Assembly (NCBI GenBank): GCA_963663035.1
Contig: OY760074.1
Coordinates: forward strand, 2,720,001-2,784,000
Reading direction: 5' to 3'
Origin: Acidobacteriota bacterium
GTDB lineage: Bacteria > Acidobacteriota > UBA6911 > RPQK01 > JADFOI01
Length of the DNA stretch: 64,000 nt
Below, one piece after another: positions 6,236-54,750 of this stretch. A model generated the notes under the pieces. It was not told where the DNA came from and searched no databases. It saw only the letters and a list, made by a program, of their open reading frames with translations. How positions within the stretch are numbered: the stretch's first letter is position 1; each line of letters starts with the position of its first letter. A program made the translations under genes and the position numbers.

Positions 6236-6244
6236 GGAGACGCC

Positions 6245-7144: not shown

Positions 7145-7153
7145 GGAGGACTC

Positions 7154-7477
7154 ATGCAGCCCTGGAAAATCAGCGTGGGACTGACGGCCATCATCTGCGC
7201 CGGGGGCTTGATGCTCGCCGGCGAGGGATTTTCCTGGCTTGCGCCCTACTTTTGGATGGTCCTCACCGATTTCTGGTTCCCCGTCTCATGGTACGCAGGG
7301 CTGGCCCTGGTCACGCTGATGTTTTCGATCTACTCCGGTGCGCGGCTCATGGGCCTTGCCGACATGGGCCGGAAAGTGGATCTGATGGAGCGGTCCATCC
7401 GGCGAGGCGAAGGAGGGCAAGCGGAGCTTGCCGAGAAGATGGAACAAGAGGAACGAGGGGAGTATCCGGGAGCCTAG
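7154..7477 (+). CDS. Small membrane protein
   Basis: RBS aaggagg; 2-3 hydrophobic segments and a charged C-terminus. Confidence 0.65.
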   Translation: MQPWKISVGLTAIICAGGLMLAGEGFSWLAPYFWMVLTDFWFPVSWYAGLALVTLMFSIYSGARLMGLADMGRKVDLMERSIRRGEGGQAELAEKMEQEERGEYPGA

Positions 7478-7517
7478 CCCCGGATCGAGTTTTCAAAACC
7501 GCAAAGGAGATTGAAAT

Positions 7518-7811
7518 ATGACTTTACCTTGCACCGGCGCTGCAAAGCGCGGAATCCTCATCGTGGCGCTGATCGTGGCGTCGTCTACGGAACTACTCGC
7601 CCAGGGTACAAGCCCCTGGCTCCAAGCCATCGACGTGTTGCAACAGGCGTTCACCGGCCCGATAGCGCGAGGGTTGAGTCTGATTGCCATCGTGGTAGGA
7701 GGCTTAATGTTTGCCTTTGGCGAGGGCGGCAGCAAGAAGGCGCTGGCCGGGATCGTCTTCGGGCTTGGCATGGCAATGGGAGCGGCCAACTTCCTAGCTT
7801 GGCTGTTCTGA
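7518..7811 (+). CDS. virB2: VirB2/TrbC-family pilin
   Basis: Signal peptide, SPWLQAI...FTGPIARGLSLIAIVVGGLMFAFGEG; position before virB3/virB4. Confidence 0.9.
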   Translation: MTLPCTGAAKRGILIVALIVASSTELLAQGTSPWLQAIDVLQQAFTGPIARGLSLIAIVVGGLMFAFGEGGSKKALAGIVFGLGMAMGAANFLAWLF

Positions 7812-8107
7812 TGGAGCGCGGCAAGGCGTGGCGCGGATACCCGGCGCTCAGTAAGCCGCTCACCATCATGGGAGTCGAGCGGCGGTGGTTCCTCTTGAGT
7901 GCCACCTTGGGACTCGCCATGTGGAACGCCATCAACTCCATTGTGACCGGCGGGTTGATCTTCGGGGTTTTGTACGCCGTGGGATTTTGGGCCTGGAAGC
8001 AAGACCCCAACATGCTTGAAATCTTGCGGGCGTCGGCCCAGTTTCGCGCCCGCTACGATCCGGGCAAGTGGGCGGCAGCGCCCTGGACCCTCTTGATTCG
8101 GAGATAG
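7811..8107 (+). CDS. virB3: VirB3/TrbD-family protein
   Basis: ALSKPLTIMGVER, two TM helices, KQDP motif; ATG overlaps the virB2 stop. Confidence 0.85.
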   Translation: MERGKAWRGYPALSKPLTIMGVERRWFLLSATLGLAMWNAINSIVTGGLIFGVLYAVGFWAWKQDPNMLEILRASAQFRARYDPGKWAAAPWTLLIRR

Positions 8108-8111
8108 CGGG

Positions 8112-10535: not shown

Positions 10536-10539
10536 TTCG

Positions 10540-11382
10540 ATGTTGAAATTCATTCCACTTTTGGTTACGGCGGTCCTGGCCTTGCCGGGGCCGCTGCTGG
10601 CTCAGGACGCCGGAGCGGTGTTGCGGATCATCGAGGCCCAGGATCAGATTGTGAGGATTCAGGCCAAGACGAGGCACACCACTGTAATCGTGCTGCCCGC
10701 GTCCGAGGACATTCTTGATTTCGTGGTGGGGGATTCCGAGTATTGGCACCTGACCGGCGCGGCCAATCTCGCTTTCCTGAAACCGATTGCGGAAGGGGTC
10801 ACAACGAACGTGGCGCTGGTCTGTGAATCCGGGCGCATCTATTCGTTCCTGGTGACGGAGGAAAGCGCCGGGGAGCCGCATCTAATCGTCCGGGTGGAGC
10901 ACCCGCAGATTGACGATCCCCGCATCTCGCCGGGTGTCAACACCCCGGCCTTTGTCCGGCGATCCCAGGTCACGGCCTATCAGGAAATGGCGGAAACCGC
11001 CATGAAGACCGTCGCCACGGTGCAGGAGGAAGCCGAGGCCCGCGTTGCCGAGGCGAAGGCCCAGGCCCAGGGTGAGACAGAGGCTTTCCGGTCGGACTAT
11101 CCCACCCGGTTGAACTTCCCTTACCGCTTGGAGGACAAGGCGATCAAATGGCCGTTTCTGGTCGAGGGAATGTGGAATGACGGGCAGTTTACCTATCTTC
11201 GCTCGAACGCCCAGGAGACGCCCGCACTGTACGAAGAAAAGGACGGGAAACCGGCCTTGGTTGCCTACGATCTTGAAGAAGACGGCCTGTATATCGCCCG
11301 TCATGTTTTAGGCAACGGCTGGTTGCAGATCGGCAAAGAAAAAGCCAAGTGGCGCTTCACCGCGCCGAAGGTGGCACCGTGA
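10540..11382 (+). CDS. virB9: VirB9/TrbG core complex protein
   Basis: Signal peptide, GDSEYW, FLKP, TNV, WNDGQFTY, PALY motifs. Confidence 0.9.
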   Translation: MLKFIPLLVTAVLALPGPLLAQDAGAVLRIIEAQDQIVRIQAKTRHTTVIVLPASEDILDFVVGDSEYWHLTGAANLAFLKPIAEGVTTNVALVCESGRIYSFLVTEESAGEPHLIVRVEHPQIDDPRISPGVNTPAFVRRSQVTAYQEMAETAMKTVATVQEEAEARVAEAKAQAQGETEAFRSDYPTRLNFPYRLEDKAIKWPFLVEGMWNDGQFTYLRSNAQETPALYEEKDGKPALVAYDLEEDGLYIARHVLGNGWLQIGKEKAKWRFTAPKVAP

Positions 11383-12782
11383 GTAGTGGATGGAAACGCC
11401 TGTACCCCAAGCCAGCCGGGAGCTTGCCGGGCGGCATTGTCACTCAATGGGGGGTGGCGCTTATTACTGTTCTAATCCTGATCTTTGTCGCGCTGTGGCT
11501 GGCAAGCGGAGGCACGGAGCAAGCGGAGATCGACTCCATAGGGGGAGAAGTCACCGGCCCGGCGCGGAACTTCGCCGGGCAGATGGCCGCGCAGGTCGAA
11601 GCCGAGGCGCTACGGGCCGAGACGCGCCGGGCGGCGGCGGATCGGACCCTACAGGCGCAGCAGCGCCAGGAGGCGCAGGAAGTCGCAACGGGCGCGATCG
11701 GAGGCGGGCAGGTGACGATGGACGAGGCGATGCTACTGGCCGGGCCGAGTCCTGAAACCGGCAGAGCATACACACAGCAGGAATTTGAACTCCGGGAACG
11801 GTTGCGCCTGGAAGCCTTGGAGCGGCGGAGCCGGTCGCTTCGCAGTTCGCCGGTGGCTCAGACCTACCGGCAATTCGCCCGCGCCAGATCACCGGCGGAG
11901 GCGGGCGCGGAGCCCGGCCCGGTCGAAGCGATCCGCGCCGAGGGAGCGGCGGCGCTTTCTCAGGCCCTTGGGACGTTCCAGGGTGTGACGGGCAGCCTGG
12001 AAGATGAAATAGGGGCGGAGGCGGACGCGGATCGGGCTTTCCTTGCGGCCCTCACCGGAGCGCAGCGGGGCGGTGGACCGGACCCGGCCCAGGCCGTTCC
12101 TCCTGGACCGGCAGCGCCCGCAGCGCCCGCGCCTAATTCGCTAGGCTTTCCCGGTGCGGCGGCGCAACCGTCCCGCGACTATGCCAACCCTTCGCGGCTT
12201 GAGGGCGGCGACGATCCGCCAGGGTGGGAACGGATCTATGAGGGAGCGTTCCTTGAGGCCGTGCTTGTCACCCAACTATCCGGTGACTTTCCCGGCCCGG
12301 TCCTGGCCCAGGTTGCCGTGCCGTTTTACTCCGCTGACCGCCAGCGGGTTTTAGTCCCGCGTGGAGCGCGGGCGATCGGAACCGCGTCGGCAGTTCTAGG
12401 CCAAGACCAAGAGCGCCTGGCCGTGTCTTTCCATCGGTTGATCTACCCGGACGGGCGATGGGTGACACTGGACTTTCACGGCCTCAACCAAGTGGGAGAA
12501 GGCGCGTTGAAAGATCGGGTGAACCGCCACTATTTCTCGATGTTTGCCGCTGTCGGAGCGGTTGGCATCATTAGCGGCCTCACCTTGCAGAACTCGAACC
12601 CTTACGGCGGCGGCGCTCAAGCGTTCCGGGCCGGAGCCGGGCAAGGGCTCGGCCAAGCGGCGGAGCAAATCTTGCAGCGTTTCTTGAACCGTTTACCCAC
12701 CCTCACCATCCGGGCCGGGCATCGGCTCCGTATCTGGTTTACGTCCGATGTACTGGTCCCCCGAAACCTGAAAGGAGAATGA
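11379..12782 (+). CDS. virB10: VirB10/TrbI core complex protein
   Basis: N-terminal TM; EAVLVTQLSGDFPGPVLAQV, RLIYPDG, VNRHY, PTLTIRAG; GTGA overlap with virB9. Confidence 0.9.
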   Translation: MSSGWKRLYPKPAGSLPGGIVTQWGVALITVLILIFVALWLASGGTEQAEIDSIGGEVTGPARNFAGQMAAQVEAEALRAETRRAAADRTLQAQQRQEAQEVATGAIGGGQVTMDEAMLLAGPSPETGRAYTQQEFELRERLRLEALERRSRSLRSSPVAQTYRQFARARSPAEAGAEPGPVEAIRAEGAAALSQALGTFQGVTGSLEDEIGAEADADRAFLAALTGAQRGGGPDPAQAVPPGPAAPAAPAPNSLGFPGAAAQPSRDYANPSRLEGGDDPPGWERIYEGAFLEAVLVTQLSGDFPGPVLAQVAVPFYSADRQRVLVPRGARAIGTASAVLGQDQERLAVSFHRLIYPDGRWVTLDFHGLNQVGEGALKDRVNRHYFSMFAAVGAVGIISGLTLQNSNPYGGGAQAFRAGAGQGLGQAAEQILQRFLNRLPTLTIRAGHRLRIWFTSDVLVPRNLKGE

Positions 12783-13699
12783 AAATGAAACACCGAATCG
12801 TGAGCGGCCTTGTCTTGGTTCCCCTCATGATCGTACTGAGCACCACGCCCGCCTACGCCATCTTTGGCTCGATCTTGGCGGCGATCCAGCGGGCGCAGAT
12901 GATCGTCAATCAGGGGGTCCAAATCTACAACGATGCAATGGAGAAGATCACGATGAACGGGCAGCTAACGGAACTGACCGATCAATTCTCGCACCTAAAA
13001 GAGCAAGCCCTTGGCACGGTCGGGGCGCTTTCGCAACCCTTCACCGATCTTAGCTCGGTCCCGACTGAATTTATCGGCGCGGGCCTTTCCTGGAAGAACG
13101 ACTTTACCGGCGTGGCCGGGGAGTTGGCCGGGGCGGTGGAGCAGCTAGGAGAATCGGGGACCAGTTTCAGCGACGCATGGAGGGACCGCTTGACGGCCAG
13201 TAACACCATATCGGAGAGCGATTTTCTGAGCCTCTACGCGGGCCAGAGCCCGGAGGTAGGAGCGGCGGCGTCACGGGTCTACCTAGCGGCAGCAGAGGCC
13301 GGGGATAAGAAGCTCGTCATGGCTCACGCCCAAAGTGACGCGGCCAAGAATCTGATGGTGGCCGCGAAGGAAGCGGTTTCGTCCTATGAAGGATTGCGAA
13401 ACAACACGAACACGAGCAACACCGCGCTACAGCAAGCGATGGTTGCCGGGACCGTGACCCAGGGCAACCTTACCGCTGCTATGGCGCAGTTGATGGTTTA
13501 TCAGGCGTCCAAGGAGAGCGCGAAAGAGTACGAACAGGAGATAGCACGGCGCGAAGAACTGGCCCGTTTCGTGGAGGCCGAGCGCCAAGCTCAGATTACG
13601 TTTGACGCGCAGCAAGCAGGGATTGCGGCCCGCGTAGATTCGATGCGCGAGGGGTTGCTTTTCAGAGTCCCGGCGCTCTACGGCGGACCCGGCCAGTAG
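12779..13699 (+). CDS. VirB5/TrbJ-like pilus-associated protein
   Basis: Signal peptide ending TPAYA, long helical Gln/Ala-rich body, directly before virB6. Confidence 0.6.
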   Translation: MKMKHRIVSGLVLVPLMIVLSTTPAYAIFGSILAAIQRAQMIVNQGVQIYNDAMEKITMNGQLTELTDQFSHLKEQALGTVGALSQPFTDLSSVPTEFIGAGLSWKNDFTGVAGELAGAVEQLGESGTSFSDAWRDRLTASNTISESDFLSLYAGQSPEVGAAASRVYLAAAEAGDKKLVMAHAQSDAAKNLMVAAKEAVSSYEGLRNNTNTSNTALQQAMVAGTVTQGNLTAAMAQLMVYQASKESAKEYEQEIARREELARFVEAERQAQITFDAQQAGIAARVDSMREGLLFRVPALYGGPGQ

Positions 13700-13708
13700 G
13701 CCGCGCCG

Positions 13709-14710
13709 ATGCAGATTCAGATTGACCCGAATATCCCCGCCAATCTCCCCCCGGAGGAAATAAGGGATTTCCAATCCTTCATTCAGACCGCCCTTGACGG
13801 CCTTACGGCAGCGGCGGGCGGTGAGGTGATGACCCTTGGGACGGGCATGTTTGCCGGGCTTGCGTTGATTGTCATCGTAATCGCCGGAGTCAAGATCGCG
13901 TTTAGCGGGAATATCCAACCGTGGGAAGTGGTGCGGCTTGTCATTGGGATATGGATTCCGTGGGTGATGATGCAGTTCTACACGACCACGATTCCCGGCA
14001 TGTCCCAAACCTTTCCGGGGATGATTGCCGAGGGCGGGAACTTTCTACACGAAATGTTGCTAGGCGACATCATTAGCTCGATGCAAACCGAACTCGGAGA
14101 CATGGTGAGGGCCATAGCCGCGAACATGCAAACGCAAGCGGCCCAGGGGAACGTGATCGGGATTTTAACGGGCGGCGTCCACGCCTTCATTACCGCCGTG
14201 GCCGGGAGCATCATCATGGCGCTTTTAGTTCTCATGCTCATCGTCTTATTCGCTGTCACCTACGCTCAGGTGATCTGGGCTCAAATCGCGCTTGCGATCC
14301 TCATCATTCTAGGGCCGATCTTTATCCCGTTTCTCGTGTTCGAGCCGATGGCCTTTCTCTTTTGGGGCTGGTTCAAAGGGATGCTTACCTATTCGCTCTA
14401 TGCCGTGATCGCCGGGTGTGTGTTGCGGGTGTTCAGCGCCGTGGGAATTGCGTATATCACGACGCTGGGCGGCGCGAACCTGGACACCCAATCTATGACT
14501 CAAGTGGGCCTATGGACGCTGGCCGTCATTCCCCTTTTCATTGCCGGGCTTCTCTCATCGCTCAAATGCGGCGAGCTGGCTTCGATGCTCGTCACCGGAG
14601 GCGGAGCGGGAGGAAGCGGACTCATGGGTATGGCGACAACGGCAGGGATGGCAGCGGCCAGCGGCGGAGCGGCAGCGGCCAAGACAGCAGCATCAGGAGG
14701 GATCAAGTGA
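13709..14710 (+). CDS. virB6: VirB6/TrbL inner-membrane protein
   Basis: Polytopic; ILGPIFIPFLVF...FWGW motif; Gly/Ala-rich tail. Confidence 0.9.
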   Translation: MQIQIDPNIPANLPPEEIRDFQSFIQTALDGLTAAAGGEVMTLGTGMFAGLALIVIVIAGVKIAFSGNIQPWEVVRLVIGIWIPWVMMQFYTTTIPGMSQTFPGMIAEGGNFLHEMLLGDIISSMQTELGDMVRAIAANMQTQAAQGNVIGILTGGVHAFITAVAGSIIMALLVLMLIVLFAVTYAQVIWAQIALAILIILGPIFIPFLVFEPMAFLFWGWFKGMLTYSLYAVIAGCVLRVFSAVGIAYITTLGGANLDTQSMTQVGLWTLAVIPLFIAGLLSSLKCGELASMLVTGGGAGGSGLMGMATTAGMAAASGGAAAAKTAASGGIK

Positions 14711-15387
14711 GCCAAGATAAGACGCCACCGGCGAAAGACGCGGGCGCGGAGTACGCCGAAATATGGGGCGAGGCGATCCACTCCAACCGTCACCTTCGGA
14801 CGATCACGGTGGGGCTTGGCATTGCGGTAATTTTGTTGATTATCGTGGTCATCCGCATTGCCTCAGTCGATCCCCCCCGGCCCATCGTGGTGAGGGTGGA
14901 TGAAATAGGCCGGGCCGAAGCCGTCGCCTATGACGTGATGGAGGCCCAGGCCGACCCGCTGGACCCGACGACCAAATACTTTCTCAATCGTTTCGTCTAT
15001 GACTTCTATTCCCGTCGCCGGGCGACGGTCGAAGAAAACTGGTCCCGCAGTCTCCGGTTTCTCACGACCGATCTAGCCAACGCATCCTTCCGGGCCGAGA
15101 GCCAGAATATCGCCCTCCTAGCGGCGGGCGCGGCCCGCGATGAGTTGCAGGTGGATCGTGTCGTTTTGAGGATTCAGGCCAACCCCCAGGAGCCCCACAG
15201 CGCGACGGCCGATTTTGACCTCGTGCGCCTTGTCGCCGAGGGCGAAGTGGACCGGGAGCGGTGGAGCTTATCGCTTCAATTCCTGTTCCTCGATGAGATC
15301 CCCCCCGATCTGATTGTTCACAATCCTATGGGTATCGTTATCACCTACCTGCAAGGAGATCGGGCGGTGGTGACGGGCGACCGATGA
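14707..15387 (+). CDS. virB8: VirB8/TrbF protein
   Basis: Single TM, PIVVRVDEIG, C-terminal NPMGIVIT; GTG start overlaps the virB6 stop. Confidence 0.9.
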   Translation: MSQDKTPPAKDAGAEYAEIWGEAIHSNRHLRTITVGLGIAVILLIIVVIRIASVDPPRPIVVRVDEIGRAEAVAYDVMEAQADPLDPTTKYFLNRFVYDFYSRRRATVEENWSRSLRFLTTDLANASFRAESQNIALLAAGAARDELQVDRVVLRIQANPQEPHSATADFDLVRLVAEGEVDRERWSLSLQFLFLDEIPPDLIVHNPMGIVITYLQGDRAVVTGDR

Positions 15388-16320
15388 TCGAGCATTTGAG
15401 GGGCCGGGAACAGGCGCTTGCATCTCTAGGATGGACCGGGCGGGAGGCGGAATGGATTGCCCTGGTCTGTCTCCACAGCGGCGTTTTCACCCGGCCTCAG
15501 TTTTGTCATTACTTCGATGCAGACAGCAAGCGGGCGCACCGTTTTGTCAAGGCATTAATTGGAGCGCGGGCAGCGGGTCGAGAGCGAGTGGCCGGTTGTC
15601 AACGGAGGCGGGAAGTCATGCCGGATATCGAGCAAGCCGATCTACCGGGCGCTGGGAATTGAGAACATCCGCCACCGGAGGAAAACTACCGTTTCCGTTC
15701 TCAGGCGGCGGCTTCTCTCGCTTGATTTTGTCCTGGAACATCCGGGCATGAACTGGCTTCCGACCGAGGGGGAAAAGGTCGAATTTATTGAAGGGCTAGG
15801 TGTCCATTCCAACCTCATTCCCCGGCGGATTTACTACGGCGCGGTTCGCGCTCAGAAACGCTATTTTGCGCTCAAGCTGCCCGTTGCCGGTGGCGATAAA
15901 ACCGTCACCTTCGCTTATGTCGATCCGGGCCATGCGACCGCCGTGGAATTCAACTCATGGGGAGCGGCGCATGGACCGCTTTGGGATGCGATCCGCGCCA
16001 AGGGGCGGCGGGTGGAGGTAATCGCCATCGGCGCGGAACTGGATACGGTTTTGCGGGCGGATCGAGTGCTACAGCTTTGGGCGGCGGCGGAGCCGGGGAA
16101 GGTGATCGAGGGGTTGACGGTGAAGCAGGAGATTAGCGCGATTAGGGAGGCGCTTCGACAAGCGCGACCTGGAATTTATGAGCCAGTACGGAGGGATGAA
16201 TCGAGGCCGGCGGAACGGTACAAGGAACTCCTGAAACTTCCCGAAGCGGAGCTTGCGGAAGGGGTCTCGATTGACGACTATTCGACGTACCGGGCCACCC
16301 GGTTTTCGGAGCCGGTTTGA
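15384..16320 (+). CDS. Uncharacterised HTH-like protein (possible replication/relaxation initiator), split by frameshift near 15557
   Basis: 15384..15662 and 15559..16320 join at KALI/ERG; motifs LHSGVF, RHRR, SLDFVL, LPTEGEK, FAYVDPG; probably another local frame slip near 16155-16210. Confidence 0.55.
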
Positions 16321-16677
16321 GGGGCCAAATCCGGGGTGTTTTTCATGCCGCTGGGGGCCGCATGCTTTTTGCCACAGGGACAAAGGGGGGGGTGCGGCAT
16401 AAAAAGCGTGGGGGTGGAACATCCCCACATTCCTTGAACTCTTTTGTTTTCCGTGGTTTGCCCCTACTATTCGGCTTCCATAATGACGATACAGAAAAAT
16501 CCGGGAAGACGATAGCGACCCCCCCCGAAAAGGGGGGTTCCTACCGGCCCCGATAGCGGCGCGATGTGGCACGCCCCTACACCGGCCCCAGGGGGTCGCT
16601 ATCGTCGGTATTTATCCCTGCGGGAAGGCTCGGAAAAGACGCCCCGGAGCGGCGTGGATTAAGCGGAGAATGGCCCT
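16321..16677. other. Structured intergenic region, oriT/oriV candidate (copy 1)
   Basis: 16-bp inverted repeat gacgatagcgaccccc 16508..16523 / 16591..16606; hairpin 16408..16428; conserved in copy 2. Confidence 0.45.
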
Positions 16678-18988
16678 ATGGAATTGCGGAAGAACTGGCG
16701 GAAACTGACCACGGCCTTGAGCCGGTTTTGGCACCGGGAGGCCGGGCCGATGAACTGGAAAAACCCCGTCCGCGTGACGGCCTATATCGGCTGGGAAATT
16801 TTCAACGGCGTGGCTTTTTTGGTGGGTGAATGGGTCCGGTACGGCGTCCGGGCCGGGCAGATTTTCCTGGCAATTCCCCCCACCGCGATTCTCTTTTTCG
16901 GGGGGGGTTTGGTTCGCCGTTTGGAGCTTTGTACGGCGTCCTTTTCCGGCGCTTGAGACGGTCCCATTGCTCGATCTTTTGGAGTATCACAACCCGAATT
17001 TTTACAGTGCCGTTGTGGTTTGGTACTACCTTTCGCCGCTGGTGGCGGTGATGCTGGCCGGGTCTATTGCCCTGTCCGTTTGGAAGGTTTGGATTGAGGC
17101 GCGAAAGCGCGATTTAATTCCCTTCGGGGCGCTTCCCGCTTGGCCGCTTTCGCCGGAGCAGCCCGGCCCGGAAATCGTCATCGGGGAAGTGCATCATCCG
17201 GTCGAACCCAAGGAGATTTTCAACCCCGAATGGCTCACCATCCCGGAGCGCGGACTGTACACCGGCATTGCCATTTTCGGAGCGGTGGGGAGCGGTAAAA
17301 CTTCGGCTTGCATGCACCCCTTCGCCAAGCAGCTACTCGGCTGGCAAGCGGACGATCCAGAGAAGCGGGCGGCGGCGCTCATGCTCGAAGTGAAGGGGGA
17401 TTTTTGCCATGACATTCGCTCGATCCTGGACGGCGCGGGCCGGGGAGACGACTACCTGGAGATCGGAATGGGGGGCCTCTGGAAATGGAATCCCCTCTCC
17501 GCGTGGTGGCTCGATTCGTACTCGCTGGCCTACACCGTTGCCAGCCTTGCTGAATCAACTTTTCGGCAAGGGCAAGGAGCCCTTTTGGCAGCAAGCCTAT
17601 ACCAATCTGGTGCGCTGGATTATCGAGCTTCACCGGGTGCTACCGGAGCAGTGGGTGACATTGCAGCAGGTCTATCAATGCGCGATTGACCCGGATCTAT
17701 TCGCGGCCAAAATCAAACAGGCCGAGGCGTGGAGCGCAGAGCTAAACACCGGGGAGGTTTTCATTCCGGTCGAGACGTGGACGAAGCGGGCGGTGGAGGT
17801 TGGAGAGTGGCTATGGACGGGCGGCGGGGAAAACGGGAAGGAAATGCGGGCCGAATGGAGCCCGGAATTGGAGCATAAGCTAAAGGAATTGAGGGATCAA
17901 GCCTCGTATCGTTTGGGAGCCCGGAGCCGGTGACGATGTGAGAGAGCGGGTGGCCGCTGTGAAGCGGTGGTTTGACAACGACTGGCAAAAGCTGGACAAC
18001 AAAATCAAATCCTCGATTGTCGAAGGGGTTTCCGTATTCCTGTCGATGTTCGATATGCCGGACGTGGCGGCGGTGTTCTGTCCCCCGCCCCCGGAAGTGT
18101 CCGACGATCCCCGGCGCATTGGCCCGAAGGCCAGGGCCGCGATGCTGGCCAGAGGCAAAGGCCCAGGCCAAGGGCCAAGGGGAGGACAGCGCCGAGAAGA
18201 AGGCCCAGGAGTCCCGGCAATGGCCCGGCGATACCATTGCCGGAAGGCCGCGCCATTTACCCCCGCTCTATGAATTGATCGAGGGCGGCAAGGTGCTGGC
18301 CTTGAATATGCCAGCCGGGAGCAACCCGGCGCTGGCCCGCGCCATCGGCGTGATGCTCAAAAACGCATGGCTCCAAGCCTTGCTCATGCGGCCCGCGCAG
18401 ATGAAGGAATCCCCAAGCACTTACTTCCGGCCCGCTGTCTTTATTTGCGACGAGTACCAATCCTTCGCGTCGGTGGGCGAGGACGATCCCACCGGCGATG
18501 AGAAATCCTTTGCCTTAACGCGGCAATGCCGGTGCATCCCGATTGTTGCGACCCAATCCATATCCTCATTGCGGGCCGTGCTGGGCAGTTCGGAGGCGTG
18601 GCGGGCGCTGCTACAGACACTTCGCACCCGGATCTTTCTATCCTTGAGCGACGACGCCAGCGCCAAGATCGCATCGGAATTGTGCGGGCAGGTTGCCAAG
18701 ATCAAAGGATCGTACACGATCAGCGAGACCTCGAAGCGGGCGGGCGTGTCCCCGCTATCGGGCCGGGCCGGTGGAGGCGGCGGGAGCATCGGCGCAACCA
18801 AGTCTTTCCAGGAGCGCCGGGAGGCCGTCTTTCACCCGCGAGACTTCACCTTGCTTGGAAACTGTCAAGCCATTTGCTTGCCCTATGACGGAGCGCAATC
18901 GCTGGAACCCCGGAGGGTCTATCTCAAACCTCATTACCTTCCCCTGGATCATTCTTATTGGAGAGCGAAGGAGGCCGGACAGATATGA
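16678..18988 (+). pseudogene. virD4: VirD4-like type IV coupling protein, copy 1, with several apparent frameshifts
   Basis: Fragments 16678, 16826, 17409, 17938 and 17972 reconstitute the intact copy at 36209..38500; indels near 16900, 17550, 17891, 18150. Confidence 0.85.
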
Positions 18989-19934
18989 GCAACGCGGCCA
19001 GCGGGCTTGCACACCTGAAACCTTTTTTGCCAGGGCTTGAACCCCTGCTAGAAGACGCGGAAGTGTCCGAGATCATGATTAACGGCCCCGGCAATGTTTG
19101 GATCGAGGCGAGGGGCCGGTTAACGGCTCATGCAGCGCCAGGGTTGGACGAATCGGCCTTGTTACGGGCGGCTATTCACATCGCCCGTCCTTTGGGCCTG
19201 GACCCGGCCACCACGCCCATCATCGACGCCCGGCTCGATGATGGTTCCCGCGTGGCGATCTGTGTTCCCCCGGCCAGTCCCCACGTTGCGATCACCATCC
19301 GGCGATTCGGCAAGCGGACGTTTAGCGCGGCGGATCTAGTCGAGCAGAAAGCCCTACCGGAAAACGTCTTGAAAGCGGCAGAGCAGGTGTTGATGACGCG
19401 GCGCAACATTCTGGTTTCCGGTGGGACCGGATCAGGCAAGACCACCTTGCTCAATGCCCTCATAGAACTGCTACCCGTTGACGAGCGCATTGTGGCAATC
19501 GAGGACACGCTAGAGCTTCGCATTGACCACTCGAATTGTGTCCGGTTTGAGGCCGAGGGTTGCAGGAAGGCGCGGTGACGATCCGCGATCTAGTGCGCCA
19601 TGCCTTGAGGCATCGACCGGATCATATCGTGGTGGGAGAGGTTCGAGGCGGTGAGGCGGCGGACCTGCTGCAAGCCCTCAACACTGGACACGGCGGGTCA
19701 CTCACGACCGTACACGCCAACAACGCGGAGAGCGCCCTATCGAGAATCGCCAGTTGCGCCATGCAGGGCGGCGGGGAGTTGCCGTGGGAGGTCACTTGCC
19801 GAGGCGTGGTGGATGGGATTGCGATGGTCATTCACATGACGCGCCGCGAGGGGCGGCGTTTCGTGGAAGAAGCCGCATACGTCAAAGGTTACGAAGCGAA
19901 GGAGAACCAATGGGAAATCGAACGGCTGGAATGA
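18985..19934 (+). pseudogene. virB11: VirB11/TrbB traffic ATPase, copy 1, frameshift near 19553
   Basis: EIMING, GGTGSGKTT, EDTLEL, LRHRPDHIVVGEVRG, NTGH; one base shorter than copy 2. Confidence 0.85.
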
Positions 19935-20435
19935 ATATCGCTAGCAAACTGAAATCCAAACGATCCGCCAAGATCGGGGTTTTGATCCTGATGGGCGGGA
20001 TGCTTGCGCTCATCACGGAAGCGCAATTTGAGCCGATTGAGGCAACGGTGGTTCGTGGGATTGACGGAGATACCATCCGGGTCCGGGTGCGAGGCAAGGA
20101 CGCACACCGTCCGTCTCATCGGCGTGGACACCCCGGAGACGGTACACCCGACCAAGACCGTGCAGCACTTTGGAGCGGAGGCCAGCGCCTACACCAAGGC
20201 CGCGCTCGAAGGTAAGACGGTGACGCTCGAAGCGGACCCGACCGGAGACACCGTGGACCGCTATGGGCGCTTGCTTCGCTACGTCTACCTGGACGGCCAG
20301 AACTTCAACGCCCGGTTGATCCGCGAGGGATACGGTCACGCCATCAGGAGATTCCGATATTCCTTGAAGGCTCAATTTATCCGGCTTGAGGACTCGGCCC
20401 GGAAAGCGGGCCGGGGGTTGTGGTCCCCGCGATGA
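19931..20435 (+). pseudogene. Thermonuclease (SNase-like), copy 1, frameshift near 20100
   Basis: IDGDTI, VRLIGVDTPE, DRYGRLLRYV, ARKAGRGLW in two frames; N-terminal TM/signal. Confidence 0.85.
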
Positions 20436-20671
20436 GGCCCGGACTCGATCAACGCGCCCTCGACGGCGGGGGACCGGCTGCGGGGCCAGATCCGACCGCA
20501 AGCGTCAGGCTGCGGGCCTTCTCTCTACGATCCACGGACCGCCGACAAGACGGCGGAGCCGTGGGCGGGGCTTGGATTCCCCCATCGTGCCGTGCGGCCC
20601 CCGGAGCATGGGTGTGTCGCCATGTGCCGCTGCCGGTCGCCGGTATCGGTTTGGCCCGGCGCAGGGATCGC

Positions 20672-20713
20672 GCCAGACCGGGGCAAGCCCCTTGCCTGTG
20701 GCATCTGTCACGC
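20672..20713 (+). repeat. Conserved leader motif, copy 1
   Basis: gccagaccggggcaagccccttgcctgtggcatctgtcacgc; also at 21421, 22255 (partial) and 40188. Confidence 0.9.
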
Positions 20714-20842
20714 CCCATGCCTGTTGCCGGTCCTGCCCGTCACCGGCGACGGCGGCGCTTTCCTCCGTGTCAGGTGTCGCCGGTATCGCCATTCACAGGT
20801 GAGCGATAACCGCTCGAACCTTAACTTAGGAGGAAACACAAA

Positions 20843-21103
20843 ATGGCTAACCACAAACCCATTGATGAAGTCCGAATTGGCCGCGTCAAAGCCACGATTT
20901 GGAAGAACGGAACCGAGGACGCCCCGCGTTACAACGTCACCTTTTCCCGTCTCTACAAAGACGGCGATCAGTGGAAGACCACGCAGAGCTTCGGGCGGAA
21001 CGATCTTCTGACGCTTGCAAAAGTGGCGGATCTCGCTCATACCCGCATCTACTCGCTCCCCCAGGAGCAGCCCGACGAGGCCGGGGAGGTTGATGAGTCC
21101 TAG
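20843..21103 (+). CDS. PC4-like small ssDNA-binding protein, copy 1
   Basis: RIGRVKATIWKN...YNVTFSRLYKDGDQWKTTQSFGRNDL; RBS aggagg. Confidence 0.7.
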   Translation: MANHKPIDEVRIGRVKATIWKNGTEDAPRYNVTFSRLYKDGDQWKTTQSFGRNDLLTLAKVADLAHTRIYSLPQEQPDEAGEVDES

Positions 21104-21158
21104 CCGGATTCAGAGCGCGGCGGGGACCACAACCCCGCCGTTTCGCTCTCCGGCTTTT
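21102..21158 (+). terminator. GC-rich hairpin followed by a short T run
   Basis: agccgga..gagcg cggcgggg/ccccgccg..cgctc tccggct ttt. Confidence 0.55.
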
Positions 21159-21420
21159 CCCACGGTTTCAGGTTCCCCTTTTTCCCCTCGTAGTGCATTG
21201 TTGCGGCCCGGTCCTTGCCGTCAAGGGATCGGCTTCGCCTCGCTTCGCGCCCTGGACCGCTGCGGGCCGGGCCGGGGAGCCGGATCTACTACGAGGGAAA
21301 AAAGGGGGAGTGTGGTGAGTGTCGCCGGTGGAGAATCACCCCGGCCCGTCGCCGGTGTTTGGCTTTTCATGGGACCGCCAGCTTTCGCCGGGTCCGGGTC
21401 ACGTCCCAGGCATCCCCCCC

Positions 21421-21462
21421 GCCAGACCGGGGCAAGCCCCTTGCCTGTGGCATCTGTCACGC
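21421..21462 (+). repeat. Conserved leader motif, copy 2
   Basis: Identical to 20672..20713. Confidence 0.9.
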
Positions 21463-21591
21463 GGGAGTGCTTGAACTGGGCCTTGCGCCCCGGAACCGGA
21501 CGGCGCTGTACTCTCTCCTGACGCTGGCCCGCTGGTTTCCCCTCATTCATAGGTGAAGGGAAAACACATCAAACCAGCTAGGAGAGAAAAA

Positions 21592-22032
21592 ATGAATCAA
21601 ATCCAAACACTCATTGACGCGGCCCGCGAGGCGCTGGCCTCCAACGGAATCCACGACACAATCCTTGCCGTGGGGATCGCCGCGATTCCCATCTTGATCT
21701 TCTGCGTCATCGTCAATCGGCTTCGCCATCCTGACCGATCCTTTCTCGCGGCTATGGCCCTTTCCGTTCTCGGATTCTTCCTAGTGCCGTCCGTAGCCAC
21801 CGGAACCGCTATCCTTTGGGTCTACACCGGAGGCGCGGGCGGACAGGCTATCGGCGTTGGAGTCGTGCTTTGGCTTCTTGGTTTTTGGCTCTTTCGACAG
21901 TGGTTGCGATCCGCTCCCCGATCCGCACGGCGAACGCGGACGGTTACACCCTCACGCGCCCGCGAACTCGCAGAGCTTCAAGACGAGACCGCGAGGTTTC
22001 GCGCTGAGGCCATGAACCGGGAGGATGAATGA
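21592..22032 (+). CDS. Small membrane protein (about 3 TM) with charged tail
   Basis: RBS aggagag, ATG 21592; hydrophobic segments. Confidence 0.65.
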   Translation: MNQIQTLIDAAREALASNGIHDTILAVGIAAIPILIFCVIVNRLRHPDRSFLAAMALSVLGFFLVPSVATGTAILWVYTGGAGGQAIGVGVVLWLLGFWLFRQWLRSAPRSARRTRTVTPSRARELAELQDETARFRAEAMNREDE

Positions 22033-22254
22033 AGCCCGTCCATAGCGGCCTAACTCCCCGTTTGGAGCGTTACAGACACTTTGCAGACCTGTCGGACAGG
22101 CTGTCGCTAACGTGTCTCTAGGCCGTGCTGTGGTTGCCCCGGACGGCGCTTGATCCGCTGTGTTTCATGCCGTCCCTCCAATCAAGCGGTTTGCGGTTTT
22201 GCCATTGGTCCGCTTGCCGTCCCCTGGTCCGGTTTGTCGCGGCGCAGGGATCGC

Positions 22255-22281
22255 GCCAGACCGTGGCAAGCCCCTTGCCTT
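22255..22281 (+). repeat. Conserved leader motif, copy 3, truncated by the IS3 element
   Basis: gccagaccgtggcaagccccttgcctt then the IS terminus tgtgacc. Confidence 0.85.
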
Positions 22282-22349
22282 TGTGACCTTGCCCCCTAAA
22301 ACGAGTCCAGTTTGAATGTTAGGATTTCCGGTTTAGGAAGGAGGCAAGG

Positions 22350-22628
22350 ATGGCAGGGAAGCGGTTTAGGGCAGAACAGATCATCATGAAGCTGCGTGAG
22401 GCAGAGGTGGGTCTGGCCCAAGGACAGAGGGTGGGACAGGTGTCGAAGCAGATGGGGGTGAGCGAGCAGACCTACTACCGGTGGCGCAAAGAGTACGGAG
22501 GGCTCCGGTTGGACCAGGCCAAGAGGTTGAAGGTGTTGGAGAAGGAGAATACCCGGTTGAAGAAGCTGGTGGCGGATCTGTCTTTGGACAAGCAGATCCT
22601 GAAGGAAGTGTCCTCGGGAAACTTCTAG
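22350..22628 (+). CDS. IS3-family transposase OrfA
   Basis: [41 protein letters not shown]; slippery gggaaac near 22616. Confidence 0.9.
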
Positions 22629-23500
22629 GCCCGGCGAACAGGAGACGAGCGGTGATGTGGGTACGAGAGCGATTAGGAGCAGAGCGAGTCTCCGAACGTC
22701 GGGCCTGCCAAGTGCTGGGACAGGTTCGATCGACCCAGCGAAGGGAAAGGCAAATTCCCGATGATGAGGCCCGATTGGTGGCCCGGATGGTGGAGTTGGC
22801 TACGCAATACGGGCGTTATGGCTACCGGCGGGTCACGGCGATACTTCATGGGGAAGGGTGGAAGGTGAATCCTAAGCGGGTGGAGAGGCTGTGGAGACAA
22901 GAAGGGCTGAAAGTCCCGTCCAGACAGCCGAAACGAAGGAGGCTGTGGCTTAATGACGGTTCCTGTGTTCGGTTACGAGCGGCTCGCAAGAACCACGTCT
23001 GGAGCTATGATTTCGTGCATGAACGGACCCATGATGGGCGAGCCTTTCGGCTATTGACGATCCTGGATGAGTACACCAGAGAGTGCCTCGCCATTGATGT
23101 GAAACGGCAGATGAATCACCAAGACGTGTTGGACCGGCTGGCGGAGTTATTCGTTGATCGGGGAGTGCCTGAGTTTATCCGGTCCGATAACGGATCGGAG
23201 TTTACGGCACAGGCGGTCCGGGACTGGCTGCAGGCTGTTGGGGTAAGGACCTTGTACATCGAGCCGGGCAGCCCCTGGGAGAATGGGTACATTGAGAGTT
23301 TCAACGGGAAACTACGGGATGAGCTGCTGAACATGGAGATCTTCGACACGCTGGGGGAAGCCAAGGTGTTGGTAGAACGCTGGCGGAGGGATTACAATCA
23401 GATCCGGCCTCACAGCGCCTTGGCCTATCGGCCGCCGGCGCCAGAGGCCAAACTACCTAGGTCGCAGGCACTGGATCTTATCCCCTGGAGTGGACTTTAA
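22625..23500 (+). CDS. IS3-family transposase OrfB (DDE), probably expressed by -1 frameshift
   Basis: [42 protein letters not shown]; start approximate. Confidence 0.9.
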
Positions 23501-23659
23501 ATGGTCCCGGGTTTAACTTAGAGGGTGGTTTCGTTGGTGGGGGCAGGTCACAGACTATGCATAACTTCGTTACGGCAGCCCCGCTGTCTTCGTCTGAGCT
23601 AAGGCACACATGAGCCAGCAAGCAAGTAAAAAAGTGAACTTAGAAAGGCCCCTTGGCAA

Positions 23660-28323: not shown

Positions 28324-28554
28324 CTACTTAATTACTGTCCCTTCTTGGGCGGTTGCGGCGGTCCTGGGTGGAGAACCTGGCGGTCGCGGCGGTCCTGGTG
28401 GAGAACCTGGCGGTCGCGGTGGTCCTGGTGGAGAACCTGGCGGTCGCGGTGGTCCTGGTGGAGAACCTGGCGGTCGCGGCGGTCCTGGTGGAGAACCTGG
28501 CGGTCGCGGCGGTCCAAGCTTGCCGCTAGCCTTTATGTTTTTTTCATCCGACAT
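28324..28554 (-). CDS. Small proline-rich repeat peptide (GSPPGPPRPP)n
   Basis: Follows the TIR gene in the same orientation; an extra G near 28366 probably shifts the true end ...GPPQPPKKGQ. Confidence 0.5.
   Translation of the reverse strand: MSDEKNIKASGKLGPPRPPGSPPGPPRPPGSPPGPPRPPGSPPGPPRPPGSPPGPPRPPGSPPRTAATAQEGTVIK
28350..28515. repeat. 30-bp tandem repeat, about 5.5 units
   Basis: Unit cggtcgcgg(c/t)ggtcctggtggagaacctgg at 28381, 28411, 28441, 28471, plus a variant at 28350 and a partial at 28501. Confidence 0.95.
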
Positions 28555-28610: not shown

Positions 28611-29108
28611 TCAATTATCCTTCCGTATCTTGATCGCTTCCTCAACGGCGGCTTCGAGATTCTTCTTAATCCAGTCGTATCGCTCTTTGCTGTTGCTTCC
28701 CGCTGGGTTGTAACACTTCACAATCGACGAGAGTTTTTTACCGCTGTTGCCGTGGGTGATGCTGGTGAACGGGTTGCTCCCTTTAGTCGCGATCTTGCCG
28801 CCCAGGTCTTTCAGGCCGTGCACATGGATGCCGACCACACCCATCCCATCGTCCCAGGACTCGACGATTTCGTGTTTAATCCATTTCCGACCAGCTGTGT
28901 TGCTGCCGACCAGAACCACCGTGCAGGACCGCCCGTGCATCTGGTCGGCAATCCACTTCTTGATAGCTGCGTCGCCACCTTTCGTGACGGTTTCCCAATC
29001 GTTGTCTGACACGGGGGTGTTTCCCTCGATCATCCCCATGTTCCTTACCTGCGCTGCGCGCGAGGCATCGGGCTTATAGTGAAAACTGAAAAACGCTTTA
29101 CGGGCCAT
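28611..29108 (-). CDS. TIR-domain protein (MTH538/DUF1863, ThsB-like)
   Basis: RKAFFSFHY, RAAQVRN, WIADQMHGRSCTVVLVG, RKWIKHEI (catalytic Glu position), GSNPF. Confidence 0.9.
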   Translation of the reverse strand: MARKAFFSFHYKPDASRAAQVRNMGMIEGNTPVSDNDWETVTKGGDAAIKKWIADQMHGRSCTVVLVGSNTAGRKWIKHEIVESWDDGMGVVGIHVHGLKDLGGKIATKGSNPFTSITHGNSGKKLSSIVKCYNPAGSNSKERYDWIKKNLEAAVEEAIKIRKDN

Positions 29109-29110
29109 TG

Positions 29111-29548
29111 TCAAACCTCCCCTACATCATCAGCAGCACCACAAAAGCAGCACCACAAAACAACAAACACAATTGTGACTGTGACGGTGATAGTACCGTG
29201 AAACAGGCGTAGCGTGTGCGACCAGGCAACGCTCCACTTCCCGTCTACACTTTCTTCAAACGGTTGAGTGTTCATCGAGAAATCGACCTGCTCCGCCTTC
29301 GCACCTCTGACGTGGTCGTAGAGCTTCCGAAACAGACGCTCTTGGCGCAAGAAATACGCATCAAGCGCCCAGAACATGAAGACCGGAAAGTAGGTCAGGA
29401 CCACAAAGAGCAAGTTGGTGCTGGCGGCGGCGAGCGCGAACAAGGCCGCAACCAACGTCACGTTCCAGCGCTTGATGAGGAACGAGTTGCTCGCCATTCT
29501 TGTGATGACCGCTTGGATCATCTGCAGGTGCGCGATCTTGGCTTCCAT
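29111..29548 (-). CDS. Membrane protein (about 3 TM), probable TIR-linked effector
   Basis: HLQMIQAVITRMASNSFLIK, FWALDAYFLRQERLFRKLY; RBS aagga before MEAK; stop 2 bp before the TIR ATG. Confidence 0.75.
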   Translation of the reverse strand: MEAKIAHLQMIQAVITRMASNSFLIKRWNVTLVAALFALAAASTNLLFVVLTYFPVFMFWALDAYFLRQERLFRKLYDHVRGAKAEQVDFSMNTQPFEESVDGKWSVAWSHTLRLFHGTITVTVTIVFVVLWCCFCGAADDVGEV

Positions 29549-35749: not shown

Positions 35750-35850
35750 GGACCGGAGCTCCAAAGCCTCCCGAAGCGGAGCTTGTGAAAGGGGTCTCGA
35801 TTGACGGCTATTCGACGTTCCGGGCAACGCGGTTTTCGGAGCCGGTTTGA

Positions 35851-39948: not shown

Positions 39949-40187
39949 GGCCGGGTCTCGATCAACACGCCCTCGACGGCGGGGGATCGACTGCGGAGCC
40001 AGATCCGACCGCAAGCGTCAGGCTGCGGGCCTTCTCTCTACGATCCACGGACCGCCGACAAGACGGCGGAGCCGTGGGCGGGGCTTGGATTCCCCCATCG
40101 TGCCGTGCGGCCACCGGAGCATGGGTGGTGTGTCGCCATGTGCCGCTGCCCGTCGCCGGTCCCAGTTTGTCCCGGCGCATGGATCGC

Positions 40188-40229
40188 GCCAGACCGGGGC
40201 AAGCCCCTTGCCTTTGGCATCTGTCACGC
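40188..40229 (+). repeat. Conserved leader motif, copy 4
   Basis: One mismatch to 20672..20713. Confidence 0.9.
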
Positions 40230-40360
40230 CCCCTGCCTGTTGCCGGTCCTGCCCGTCCCCGGCGGCGGCGGCGCTTTCCTCCGTGTCAAGGTGTCGCCGG
40301 TATCGCCATTCACAGGTGAGCGATAACCGCTCGAACCTTAACTTTAGGAGGAAACACAAA

Positions 40361-40609
40361 ATGGCTAACCAGAAACCCGTTGATGAAATCCGAATCGGGC
40401 GCGTCAAAGCGACAGTTTGGCGCAACGGAACCGAAGACCAGCCCAGGTACAACGTCACCTTCTCGCGGCTCTACAAAGACGGCGATCAATGGAAGAGTAC
40501 GCACAGCTTCGGGCGCAACGACTTGTTGGTGCTTGCGAAAGTGGCCGATCAGGCCCACACGCGCATCTTCGAGCTTTCCCAGGAAAAAGAACAGGAGGCC
40601 GATTCCTAG
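40361..40609 (+). CDS. PC4-like small ssDNA-binding protein, copy 2
   Basis: MANQKPVDEIRIGRVKATVWRN...FSRLYKDGDQWKST. Confidence 0.7.
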   Translation: MANQKPVDEIRIGRVKATVWRNGTEDQPRYNVTFSRLYKDGDQWKSTHSFGRNDLLVLAKVADQAHTRIFELSQEKEQEADS

Positions 40610-54737: not shown

Positions 54738-54750
54738 AGCGAGAACCACA

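Follow-up and report, generated by a model that had tools for sequence, protein, structure and literature searches.

A 42-nucleotide core and the "covarying hairpin" downstream of it belong to a single bipartite leader, ~245–250 nucleotides long. The initial annotation of the window (the whole 64,000-nucleotide stretch of DNA analyzed here) had proposed that a structured leader precedes every distal gene; in this conjugative element it does, and it is indeed repeated, folded, and marked by covariation. Each copy would act in cis as a two-module 5' leader before every gene of a small-gene array that lies at the far end of the type IV secretion cluster; the mobile elements concerned are conjugative or integrative and come from soil Acidobacteriota. 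By pairing away the ribosome-binding site, the leader probably decides when the downstream small genes are made. As the best explanation, we tentatively favor a new kind of 5' leader RNA acting in cis to gate translation, with action of the fold in single-stranded DNA as a close rival.

Architecture of the leader and its copies in the window

Module A is a long irregular hairpin. Its tip, a three-way junction, is the 42-nucleotide core and comprises the 5' strand of helix P3, hairpin P4 (GGGGC-AA-GCCCC), hairpin P5 (TGCC-TGT-GGCA), and a conserved TCTGTCAC. Module B is a three-tier hairpin in which the Shine-Dalgarno (SD) sequence pairs with an upstream anti-SD in the outer, or base, helix. 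In leader 1, aligned with 46 homologous leaders and folding as two domains, the anti-SD tttcctcc (20759–20766) is predicted to pair with the SD ggaggaaa (20829–20836), with an inner hairpin at 20784–20808; in leader 2 the predicted fold pairs tctctcct (21512–21519) with aggagaga (21580–21587), with an inner hairpin at 21536–21563. The sequence of the module A tip is far more tightly held than that of the module A stems: between leaders within one source, identity is 0.83 at the tip versus 0.57 in the stems (36 pairs), and the window leaders agree at 43/43 positions of the core and at 90/217 of the rest. Across alignment rows P4 and P5 differ in stem length but stay paired.

Features of the leader array in the window (R1 and R2 are the covariance models of modules A and B, respectively)
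Feature	Position	Strand	Remarks
Leader 1 (subtype I), full two-module unit	20600..20845	+	ends on ATG of 86-aa gene
Leader 1, module A upper part (helices P1–P5)	20651..20735	+	R1 match 65.0 bits, E 4.2e-12
Leader 1, 42-nt core	20671..20712	+	tip of module A
Leader 1, module B	20756..20845	+	R2 match 56.9 bits, E 2e-11; ATG at 20843
86-aa gene	20843..21103	+	no Pfam family; predicted four strands and one helix
Terminator-like hairpin, GC-rich, then cttttccc	21104..21161	+	after 86-aa gene; predicted fold
Leader 2 (subtype II), full unit	21349..21594	+	ends on ATG of 146-aa membrane-protein gene
Leader 2, module A upper part	21401..21484	+	R1 match 47.6 bits, E 6.9e-08; core 21420–21461
Leader 2, module B	21508..21594	+	R2 match 27.1 bits, E 0.0018; ATG at 21592
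146-aa predicted membrane protein	21592..22032	+
Leader 3 (like subtype I)	22210..22283	+	cut inside P5 by IS3-family element
Leader 1b, copy of leader 1 in segmental duplication	40116..40363	+	R1 65.6 bits, R2 58.4 bits
82-aa paralogue	40361–40609	+	after leader 1b

Recurrence of the core is as the initial annotation had it, with coordinates shifted by one base: two exact matches (20671–20712 and 21420–21461) and a third with one mismatch (40187–40228), where none is expected by chance (100 shuffles). The copy at 40187 is not independent of the others because it lies inside a 4.9-kb segmental duplication (16234–21083 versus 35764–40601, 80–96% identity by segment). A partial copy, near 22254, retains a 24-nt part of the core at 22256–22279, gives an R1 match at 22234–22289 of only 18.6 bits (E 0.68), and is interrupted by an IS3-family element (22284–23550) in which transposase domains were found and whose terminal inverted repeats lie at 22282–22295 and 23539–23552. 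The hairpin of module B had been described as keeping its loop while exchanging its stem. The loop CATTCAYAGGTGA does occur three times (20790, 21544, 40307) against 0.08 expected, and the stems differ as claimed (tatcgc/gcgata at 20784–20808, tttccc(ct)/agggaaa at 21536–21563), but what is compared is two paralogous leader subtypes, each conserved in other elements. The long GC-rich self-complementary tracts are likewise real. Leader 1 (246 nt) folds as plus-strand RNA with a z-score of -4.10, and none of 200 shuffles folds as well; leader 2 is weaker in this form (z -1.48), with 17/200 shuffles equally good.

The product of the 86-aa gene has no sequence match in the PDB, brings up only unnamed clusters in the Atlas, and gives nothing significant in a Foldseek search against the PDB (best E 0.27). 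A PC4 homologue at Foldseek rank 2 (E 0.29) is only a lead.

Distribution and covariation of the family

Covariance models for module A (R1) and module B (R2), built from related loci alone without window sequences, recover every window copy. A family exists, with the leader present in 63 of the 81 sources examined. R1 gives 92 module-A matches in these sources, all on the gene strand; in 83 of the 92, module B follows 12–24 nt after module A as an R2 match. All but one of the 92 plus-strand R2 matches (91/92) end on a start codon, and six gene families are preceded, among them the family of the 146-aa membrane protein (16/92). An element carries up to four leaders, which are present at every unit boundary. 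The 86-aa gene occurs without a leader in 18/81 sources, which counts against the leader-RNA reading.

Homology among these regions becomes apparent only once the upstream regions are aligned; a hand-made regular expression was of no use, and the exact core and loop motifs are found in 0/80 related loci. In line with the new family that the initial annotation supposed, an Rfam search (Rfam 15, gathering threshold) found no match in the window. The only sub-threshold match in 20300–22400 was mir-667 (E 3.2), and nothing in Rfam overlaps the leaders in five further loci (L014, L005, L035, L062, and L017). The PLSDB plasmid collection, which presumably includes F-like plasmids, holds no match to 20000–22300 (blastn distant mode, 72,556 plasmid records). 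Among the papers listed in literature searches are some on Frpo, CUP, and Reg576, but none that describes the leader element.

The content and order of the array differ between elements, while the leader is common to them. This is one of two observations that would favor units that are mobile cassettes, recombined or nicked at the leader in the manner of attC or oriT; the other is that in one locus (L062) the leader and its gene adjoin a tRNA and an integrase, away from the secretion genes. Such a role is highly improbable: a scan of 54 window ORFs turned up no relaxase or integrase family, integron integrases included; the element takes in the SD and ATG of the next gene, whereas an attC site lies downstream of its cassette ORF; and ordinary recombination between conserved leaders can explain the shuffling.

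Both modules show covariation, with compensatory changes that keep the fold. In MAFFT alignments made without reference to structure, pairing reaches 90.1% in module B, where 9 pairs have changed on both sides, and 86.6% in module A, where 13 have; 0/500 shuffles reach these values in either case, and slid controls give 39–55% and 33–48% paired, respectively. In helices P1 and P2 of module A, it is long-range pairs 60–80 nt apart that covary. RNAalifold on the raw 309-column alignment gave only -4.21 kcal/mol and 18 pairs, and the modules were realigned separately. For the outer helix of module B, pairing stands at 87.1% and 2 pairs have changed on both sides; once the alignment is fitted, with 28 minus-strand rows included, 7/7 of the helix's pairs do so. 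An alternative hairpin, GTGAGCG/CGCTCAC, is 97.3% paired but invariant and hence uninformative. Enforcing it costs 0.6–5.8 kcal/mol, with the SD still not freed in 3/4 leaders tested.

The long-range pairs of P1 and P2 bear on an alternative in which the leaders control genes as double-stranded DNA, bound by a repressor that the element encodes, and are self-complementary only incidentally. In IncN plasmid pKM101, ArdK binds the CUP sites that precede ardB, ardK, and repA (PMC6289460), and p576 has four promoters under one repressor, with Reg576 operators (PMC6294495). The leader resembles both in being one conserved upstream element that recurs before several establishment-type genes, an arrangement that gives coordinate control; here the genes belong to a conjugative element, and the leader's tip is tightly conserved within an element. 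Operators of the CUP and Reg576 type are short double-stranded sites overlapping ordinary promoters, whereas the leader is a fold of ~245 nt with long-range covariation and no promoter motif. A repressor-operator role is highly improbable in view of the covarying P1/P2 pairs 60–80 nt apart, the stem lengths and loop sizes that vary with pairing kept, and the lack of any promoter motif that a short operator could overlap.

The ribosome-binding site and the acting strand

The outer helix of module B tracks the SD variant, occurring as GGAGGAA/TTCCTCC, AGGAGAGA/TCTCTCCT, and GGAGAC/GTCTCC, and the leaders show the SD, the upstream anti-SD, and the compensatory change that mark an SD-sequestering element. 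The predicted pairing probability of the SD averages 0.90 in the leaders and is at least 0.8 in 69/88; in 150 further ORFs from these loci the mean is 0.66, with at least 0.8 in 41/150 (Mann-Whitney p 1.4e-17). Leaders of this class include riboswitch expression platforms and RNA thermometers. The present leader shares with them a hairpin that directly precedes the start codon and at whose base the SD pairs with an upstream anti-SD; it departs from them in having no Rfam match, a second large domain, and up to four uses per mobile element.

The leader's coupling to the gene start, together with the pairing of the SD, favors RNA as the acting form. The fold would then act in the mRNA, with translation off by default, and the shared tip of module A may be the docking site of one common factor. 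Such a putative factor would open or lock all leaders of one element together and could come from the element, in which the conserved 86-aa first gene is a candidate; if one factor docks at all leaders, the array would therefore be one regulon.

How the units are transcribed is a weak point of the leader-RNA reading. On the plus strand, none of 89 leaders has a sigma-70-like promoter in the 250 nt before the ATG. Sites with at least 8/12 matches to the -35/-10 boxes occur in 10/89 leaders on the plus strand and 6/89 on the minus strand, against 105/445 shuffles, and a scan of 20000–22400 gave no plus-strand site and one minus-strand site, outside the leaders. The initial annotation cited Frpo, but the leader is not a promoter of that type: its stems do not recreate canonical -35/-10 boxes. 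Terminator-like hairpins follow 18/83 leader genes, compared with 43/2000 random windows, and homologous hairpins with T tracts are present in other loci. With promoters missing and terminator-like hairpins present, the leader-RNA reading does not account for transcription of each unit, which counts against it.

Two other promoter types were considered and rejected. A sigma-54 promoter (GG-N10-GC; TGGCAC-N5-TTGC) requires invariant sequence and spacing and is not conserved: where the window core has (G/T)GGCAAGCCCCTTGC, homologues have GAACGCTTTGCTCGCC and similar sequences, and in a second look-alike (CTGTCAC...TTGC) the spacing varies by 2–3 nt. In an ECF-type reading (GAAC ... CGTC), the spacer varies over 17–22 nt with stem length.

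The terminator-like hairpins between units, the leaders' lack of a promoter, and their presence at every unit boundary would also suit an RNA fold acting on transcription or on the transcript, whether by reading through the hairpins between genes or as a processing or stabilizing module. This is improbable. To our knowledge, read-through elements act once per operon, a habit that does not fit an element standing before each gene; SD pairing and its covariation would be left unexplained; and there is no Rfam match, although known antitermination RNAs or ribozymes in Rfam would be included.

A further confounding issue is the strand. In 87/89 leaders the minus-strand fold is the more stable of the two, which counts against the leader-RNA reading, and the difference of 8.66 kcal/mol, where 1.95 is expected from composition, exceeds expectation in 44/45 leaders. 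The structure conservation index is likewise higher on the minus strand (0.315 versus 0.096 for module A, 0.331 versus 0.321 for module B), and the two window leaders fold as minus-strand DNA with z-scores of -3.85 and -3.56. On the plus strand, 232/301 of the 1x1 mismatches are A.C, C.U, or C.C; those on the minus strand are mostly G.G and A.G, a mix that favors the minus strand. Loops of the form TNC, found at P5 in 43/71 rows and at P4 in ~30/72, read as GNA triloops in the minus strand; 11 rows have GCGAAGC, a DNA mini-hairpin of unusual stability. The unpaired bases of the plus strand are C- and U-rich, which is unusual for structured RNAs and counts further against the leader-RNA reading. 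A wobble test for strand (G.U versus A.C in the consensus helices) was not decisive, at 58 versus 44, 31 versus 23, and 77 versus 68; mirroring the plus-strand structure onto the minus strand was set aside as biased by construction.

Because the fold is strand-asymmetric, the acting form could be the template strand of the genes: the minus strand would fold on entering the recipient, and its hairpins would constitute a non-canonical single-strand initiation site, a promoter or priming site similar to Frpo or ssi, before each gene. We regard this as possible though somewhat unlikely. The setting is appropriate, in that the element is conjugative and has ArdC as well as a type IV secretion system, and terminator-like hairpins stand behind the genes with no ordinary promoter before them. 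The Frpo and ssi elements of F-like and IncI plasmids (PMC9849209, PMC11541004) are like the leader in being long hairpin-forming non-coding stretches, repeated and nearly identical within one element, and placed just upstream of conjugative-element genes in the same orientation; F has two Frpo copies, 92% identical, each before a gene set (PMC9849209). In Frpo, however, the stem recreates canonical -35/-10 (and UP) boxes, and the leaders lack the -35/-10 boxes by which Frpo is defined (PMC11541004, PMC9849209). The leader differs further in that it has no sequence likeness in the plasmid collection, pairs the SD in its base, and has a three-way junction as its tip, which is no mimic of duplex DNA. 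An Frpo or ssi promoter would also be placed in the leading region beside oriT, with the transferred strand as the template of its genes; the window shows neither a relaxase, among the 54 ORFs scanned, nor an oriT. Moreover, the hairpin base holds the SD at a fixed register to the start codon, an arrangement for which a priming site has no need, and a G.U pair of module B conserved on the plus strand in 38/44 rows would become a C.A mismatch on the minus strand.

A dual use of the element is distinctly unlikely. Module B or A on the incoming minus strand would nucleate initiation without -35/-10 boxes, and early transcripts, starting inside the hairpin and without the anti-SD arm, would be translated; read-through transcripts made later from the double-stranded element would carry both arms and fold shut.

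The better folding of the minus strand would also be expected if the fold belonged to a cis-antisense RNA pairing with the mRNA leader, much as FinP pairs with the traJ leader. A weak promoter-like site on the minus strand, with a -10 CATAAT over the start codon, occurs in 24/85 units, but it has only 8/12 matches, its -35 lies within constrained coding sequence, and it is absent in 61/85 units, those of the window included. As no minus-strand terminator was seen on reading the leaders, and an antisense RNA of at least 250 nt would be unusually long, this explanation is very improbable.

Meaning for mobile elements of Acidobacteriota

Acidobacteriota are among the commonest soil bacteria, and no paper among those listed in the literature searches deals with the control of their conjugative elements. 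If the fold acts in single-stranded DNA, the leader would be the first single-strand initiation element without promoter boxes; if the dual use is true, each gene of the establishment array would have a built-in early-on, late-off switch before it. If, as we favor, RNA is the acting form, the leaders would be a new family of RNAs that control translation and together make up a regulon inside a mobile element. Reuse of the leader before unrelated small genes would mark these as one co-controlled set, and the two covariance models provide a sequence handle for finding such arrays and their cargo genes.

Architecture of the leader and its copies in the window

The conjugation machinery, carried throughout on the plus strand, comprises ArdC, VirB3, a VirB4-like ATPase, VirB9/CagX, VirB10/TrbI, VirB6/TrbL, VirB8, a coupling protein, a VirB11-type ATPase, and an SNase-type nuclease; no relaxase family was found among the 54 window ORFs scanned. 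Two further genes follow, each preceded by a long GC-rich spacer holding a leader of about 245 nt, with module A upstream and module B ending on the start codon. The leader is a genuine bipartite folded element, widespread and undescribed.

Module B, the hairpin of the initial annotation, occupies the final ~95 nt and is built in three tiers: an outer helix formed by the Shine-Dalgarno (SD) sequence and an upstream anti-SD, a middle helix GGGTTTG/CAAACCC, and an inner helix that differs between elements, with a loop terminating in GGTGA. Module A is a long irregular hairpin (P1, P2, and further outer pairing) whose tip, the 42-nt core, is a small three-way junction of P3 (GCCAG/CTGTC) and the mini-hairpins P4 and P5, followed by conserved TCTGTCAC. 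P4 has 2-5 pairs, P5 4-6, and their loops 3-7 nt, with pairing maintained throughout. These folds come from RNAalifold on the realigned modules. When pairing was counted in MAFFT alignments of related loci alone, independent of structure fitting, 90.1% of cells were paired in module B and 86.6% in module A, with 9 and 13 pairs, respectively, changed on both sides (0/500 shuffles for each; slid controls 39-55% and 33-48%, the slid control correcting for relatedness and the shuffle control not). The fitted alignment of all module-A matches has 19 of 25 pairs altered on both sides. Its module-B counterpart includes 28 weak minus-strand rows and is therefore not relied on; the 77 distinct plus-strand rows taken by themselves are 90.1% paired. 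The covariation proposed in the initial annotation holds, with compensatory changes in both modules. Covariance models R1 and R2 (modules A and B), built without window sequences, recover the window copies. Rfam holds no family matching the leaders.

The claimed recurrence of the core (0 expected in 100 shuffles) is likewise borne out, with a partial copy near 22254, and the two differing stems around a common loop, CATTCAYAGGTGA, read as described (three loops against 0.08 expected). The core at 40187-40228 lies inside a segmental duplication, so it is counted as one copy with that at 20671. The duplication, 80-96% identical by segment, covers the final part of the transfer cluster, with coupling protein, VirB11, nuclease, leader, and 86-aa gene; the coupling protein and VirB11 are broken up into several ORFs in its first copy and whole (763 and 325 aa) in the second, partial copy. 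The leader at 22254 is broken after ...CCTTGCCTTTG by an IS3-family element, past which lie DUF1800 and DUF1501 genes of lower G+C; as the leader sequence is not resumed there, rearrangement after insertion is indicated. A 20-nt inverted repeat with arms 95% complementary and 93 nt apart lies downstream of the terminator-like hairpin and ahead of leader 2, in a stretch missing from 14 other homologous spacers (12 loci) in the alignment, which makes it look like an insertion.

Features of the window
Feature	Position	Detail
Conjugation machinery	5141-20435	plus strand
Segmental duplication	16234-21083 / 35764-40601	
R1 match, leader 1	20651-20735	65.0 bits
Core, exact	20671-20712	
R2 match, leader 1	20756-20845	56.9 bits
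Loop	20790; 21544; 40307	
86-aa gene	20843-21103	downstream of nuclease; no Pfam family
GC-rich hairpin	21104-21153	behind 86-aa gene; then cttttccc
Inverted repeat	21175-21194 / 21288-21307	
R1 match, leader 2	21401-21484	47.6 bits
Core, exact	21420-21461	
R2 match, leader 2	21508-21594	27.1 bits, E 0.0018
146-aa membrane-protein gene	21592-22032	downstream of 86-aa gene; no Pfam family
R1 match, cut copy (leader 3)	22234-22289	18.6 bits, E 0.68
Core, partial	22256-22279	24 nt
IS3-family element	22284-23550	in third leader; HTH_Tnp_1 and rve ORFs; terminal inverted repeats TGTGACCTTGCCCC / GGGGGCAGGTCACA
Tandem array	28367-28545	five 30-nt units (GGTGGAGAACCTGGCGGTCGCGGCGGTCCT), adjoining the TIR ORF
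ThsB-like TIR-domain ORF	28611-29114	minus strand
R1 match, duplicate	40167-40251	65.6 bits
Core, one mismatch	40187-40228	
R2 match, duplicate	40272-40363	58.4 bits
Phosphatase fusion ORF	45644-47125	dual-specificity phosphatase-like domain fused with ADP-ribosylglycohydrolase domain
Type 1 BREX defence cluster	53416-64000	BrxA, BrxB, BrxC, PglX-like methylase, PglZ; continues beyond window end

Distribution across related loci

Among candidate relatives of the 86-aa protein, 901 of 902 fall at E ≤0.001, none of them named. A one-genome-per-species scan with an alignment of 23 relatives confirmed 89 places, and 80 of them were retained; 79 bear record titles of Acidobacteriota lineages (membership of the phylum was checked for Bryobacterales and Ca. 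Versatilivorator and is presumed for the rest) and one bears a Gemmatimonadetes title. The exact core occurs in 0 of the 80, yet the full spacer 5' of the 86-aa gene can be aligned across loci (49 sequences, 309 columns, 64% mean column identity).

Searched against the 80 loci together with the window, R1 yields 92 matches in 63 of 81 sources, every one on the gene strand: one match in 41 sources, two in 18, three in 1, and four in 3 (the window, L005, and L014). R2 matches 12-24 nt downstream of 83 of the 92, and 91 of 92 plus-strand R2 matches end on a start codon; in 18 sources the 86-aa gene has no leader. The gene that follows R2 belongs to the 86-aa family in 60 cases and one frameshifted copy, to that of the 146-aa membrane protein in 16, and to a "PGWPQY" family in 5, with single cases of DUF2958 and of a Cys-rich 84-aa protein. 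In 6 more, R2 leads into a short upstream ORF of 17 codons, and the SD and ATG of a ~100-aa gene overlap its stop codon, an arrangement that suggests translational coupling. With leaders in most sources and before several gene families, the repeated leader is a general trait of these elements.

Leader 2 represents a second subtype, and its tttccc/gggaaa stem is conserved in other loci too. A third variant, in L005 (6646-6699), L006, L007, L014, L019, and L025, ends on the conserved 17-codon ORF (MANSTFNRETNWRIITS and similar). In another locus, L062 (4071-6255), the leader and 86-aa gene lie behind a tRNA gene and a gene for a tyrosine integrase instead of secretion genes, so the unit is also found at the border of an integrated island; two Acido-Lenti-1 RNA matches lie there on the minus strand (3311-3356 and 3544-3590).

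Translation start, folding strand, and transcription signals

The anti-SD tracks the SD variant, with TTCCTCC/GGAGGAA in leader 1, TCTCTCCT/AGGAGAGA in leader 2, and GTCTCC/GGAGAC in leaders of the second subtype from other loci. In partition-function folds the SD is paired with a mean probability of 0.90 (at least 0.8 in 69 of 88 distinct leaders), versus 0.66 in 150 other, uncurated ORFs of the same loci (at least 0.8 in 41; p 1.4e-17). Folding of the plus (mRNA) strand is further supported by the fixed register with SD and ATG, by a G.U pair kept in 38 of 44 rows, and by C(UUCG)G loops seen in a single clade. A role as a translational leader RNA is the leading, though tentative, reading.

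Other features favor the minus strand, on which the element would act as template-strand single-stranded DNA. Its minimum free energy lies below that of the plus strand in 87 of 89 leaders, and the gap of 8.66 kcal/mol, against 1.95 expected by composition, exceeds expectation in 44 of 45. Mean fold z is -4.10 for minus versus -2.61 for plus, and the structure conservation index is 0.315 versus 0.096 in module A, 0.126 versus 0.039 over the whole leader, and 0.331 versus 0.321 in module B. Among 1x1 mismatches, A.C, C.U, and C.C predominate on the plus strand (232 of 301), G.G and A.G on the minus. TNC loops (43 of 71 in P5, and many in P4) become GNA on the minus strand, and GNA triloops are very stable in DNA. 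Wobble counts in the consensus helices do not decide between strands, and because the sequences are related, such counts are not independent events. A template-strand DNA element is judged somewhat less likely than the leader RNA, with the remaining probability spread over other readings.

Frpo, the single-stranded DNA promoter of F, forms canonical -10/-35 boxes anew within a folded stem-loop; it occurs in two copies of 92% identity, and from it early genes are expressed off the strand that enters (PMC9849209, PMC11541004). The leaders resemble Frpo in repetition, position, and hairpin, but differ in failing a promoter-box test. No sigma-70-like promoter was found on the plus strand across 20000-22400. 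When 400 nt at each of 89 leaders were scanned, a site scoring at least 8/12 turned up in 10 leaders for the plus strand and in 6 for the minus (shuffles, 105/445); every plus-strand site was more than 250 nt from the ATG. The core also holds look-alikes of sigma-54 and ECF promoters, which were dropped, as conservation or spacing fails. Nor was sequence likeness of the leaders to any plasmid record found. A hairpin with a T tract (strict rule) lies downstream of 18 of 83 leader genes versus 43 of 2000 random windows.

A different comparison is with IncN CUP repeats, which are ArdK binding sites (PMC6289460), and with p576, in which four promoters are under one repressor (PMC6294495). Both are double-stranded operators, whereas the leaders show long-range covariation, which rules out such operators as the sole explanation.

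Conserved tip and the first array gene

Leaders from the same source share a mean identity of 83% in the tip versus 57% in the stems (36 pairs), and the window leaders agree at 43 of 43 core positions and 90 of 217 elsewhere, so that the stems are maintained as pairs only and the tip as sequence. A clade-specific P4 is common to paralogous leaders within one element. Tip conservation fits a single common partner, and also gene conversion.

The model of the 86-aa protein has four strands and one helix (pLDDT 83.4). The only suggestive match in a fold search, which was not significant, was the bacterial PC4 homologue 5a4o (E 0.29); if that match is real, the first gene of the array may encode a single-stranded nucleic-acid binder.
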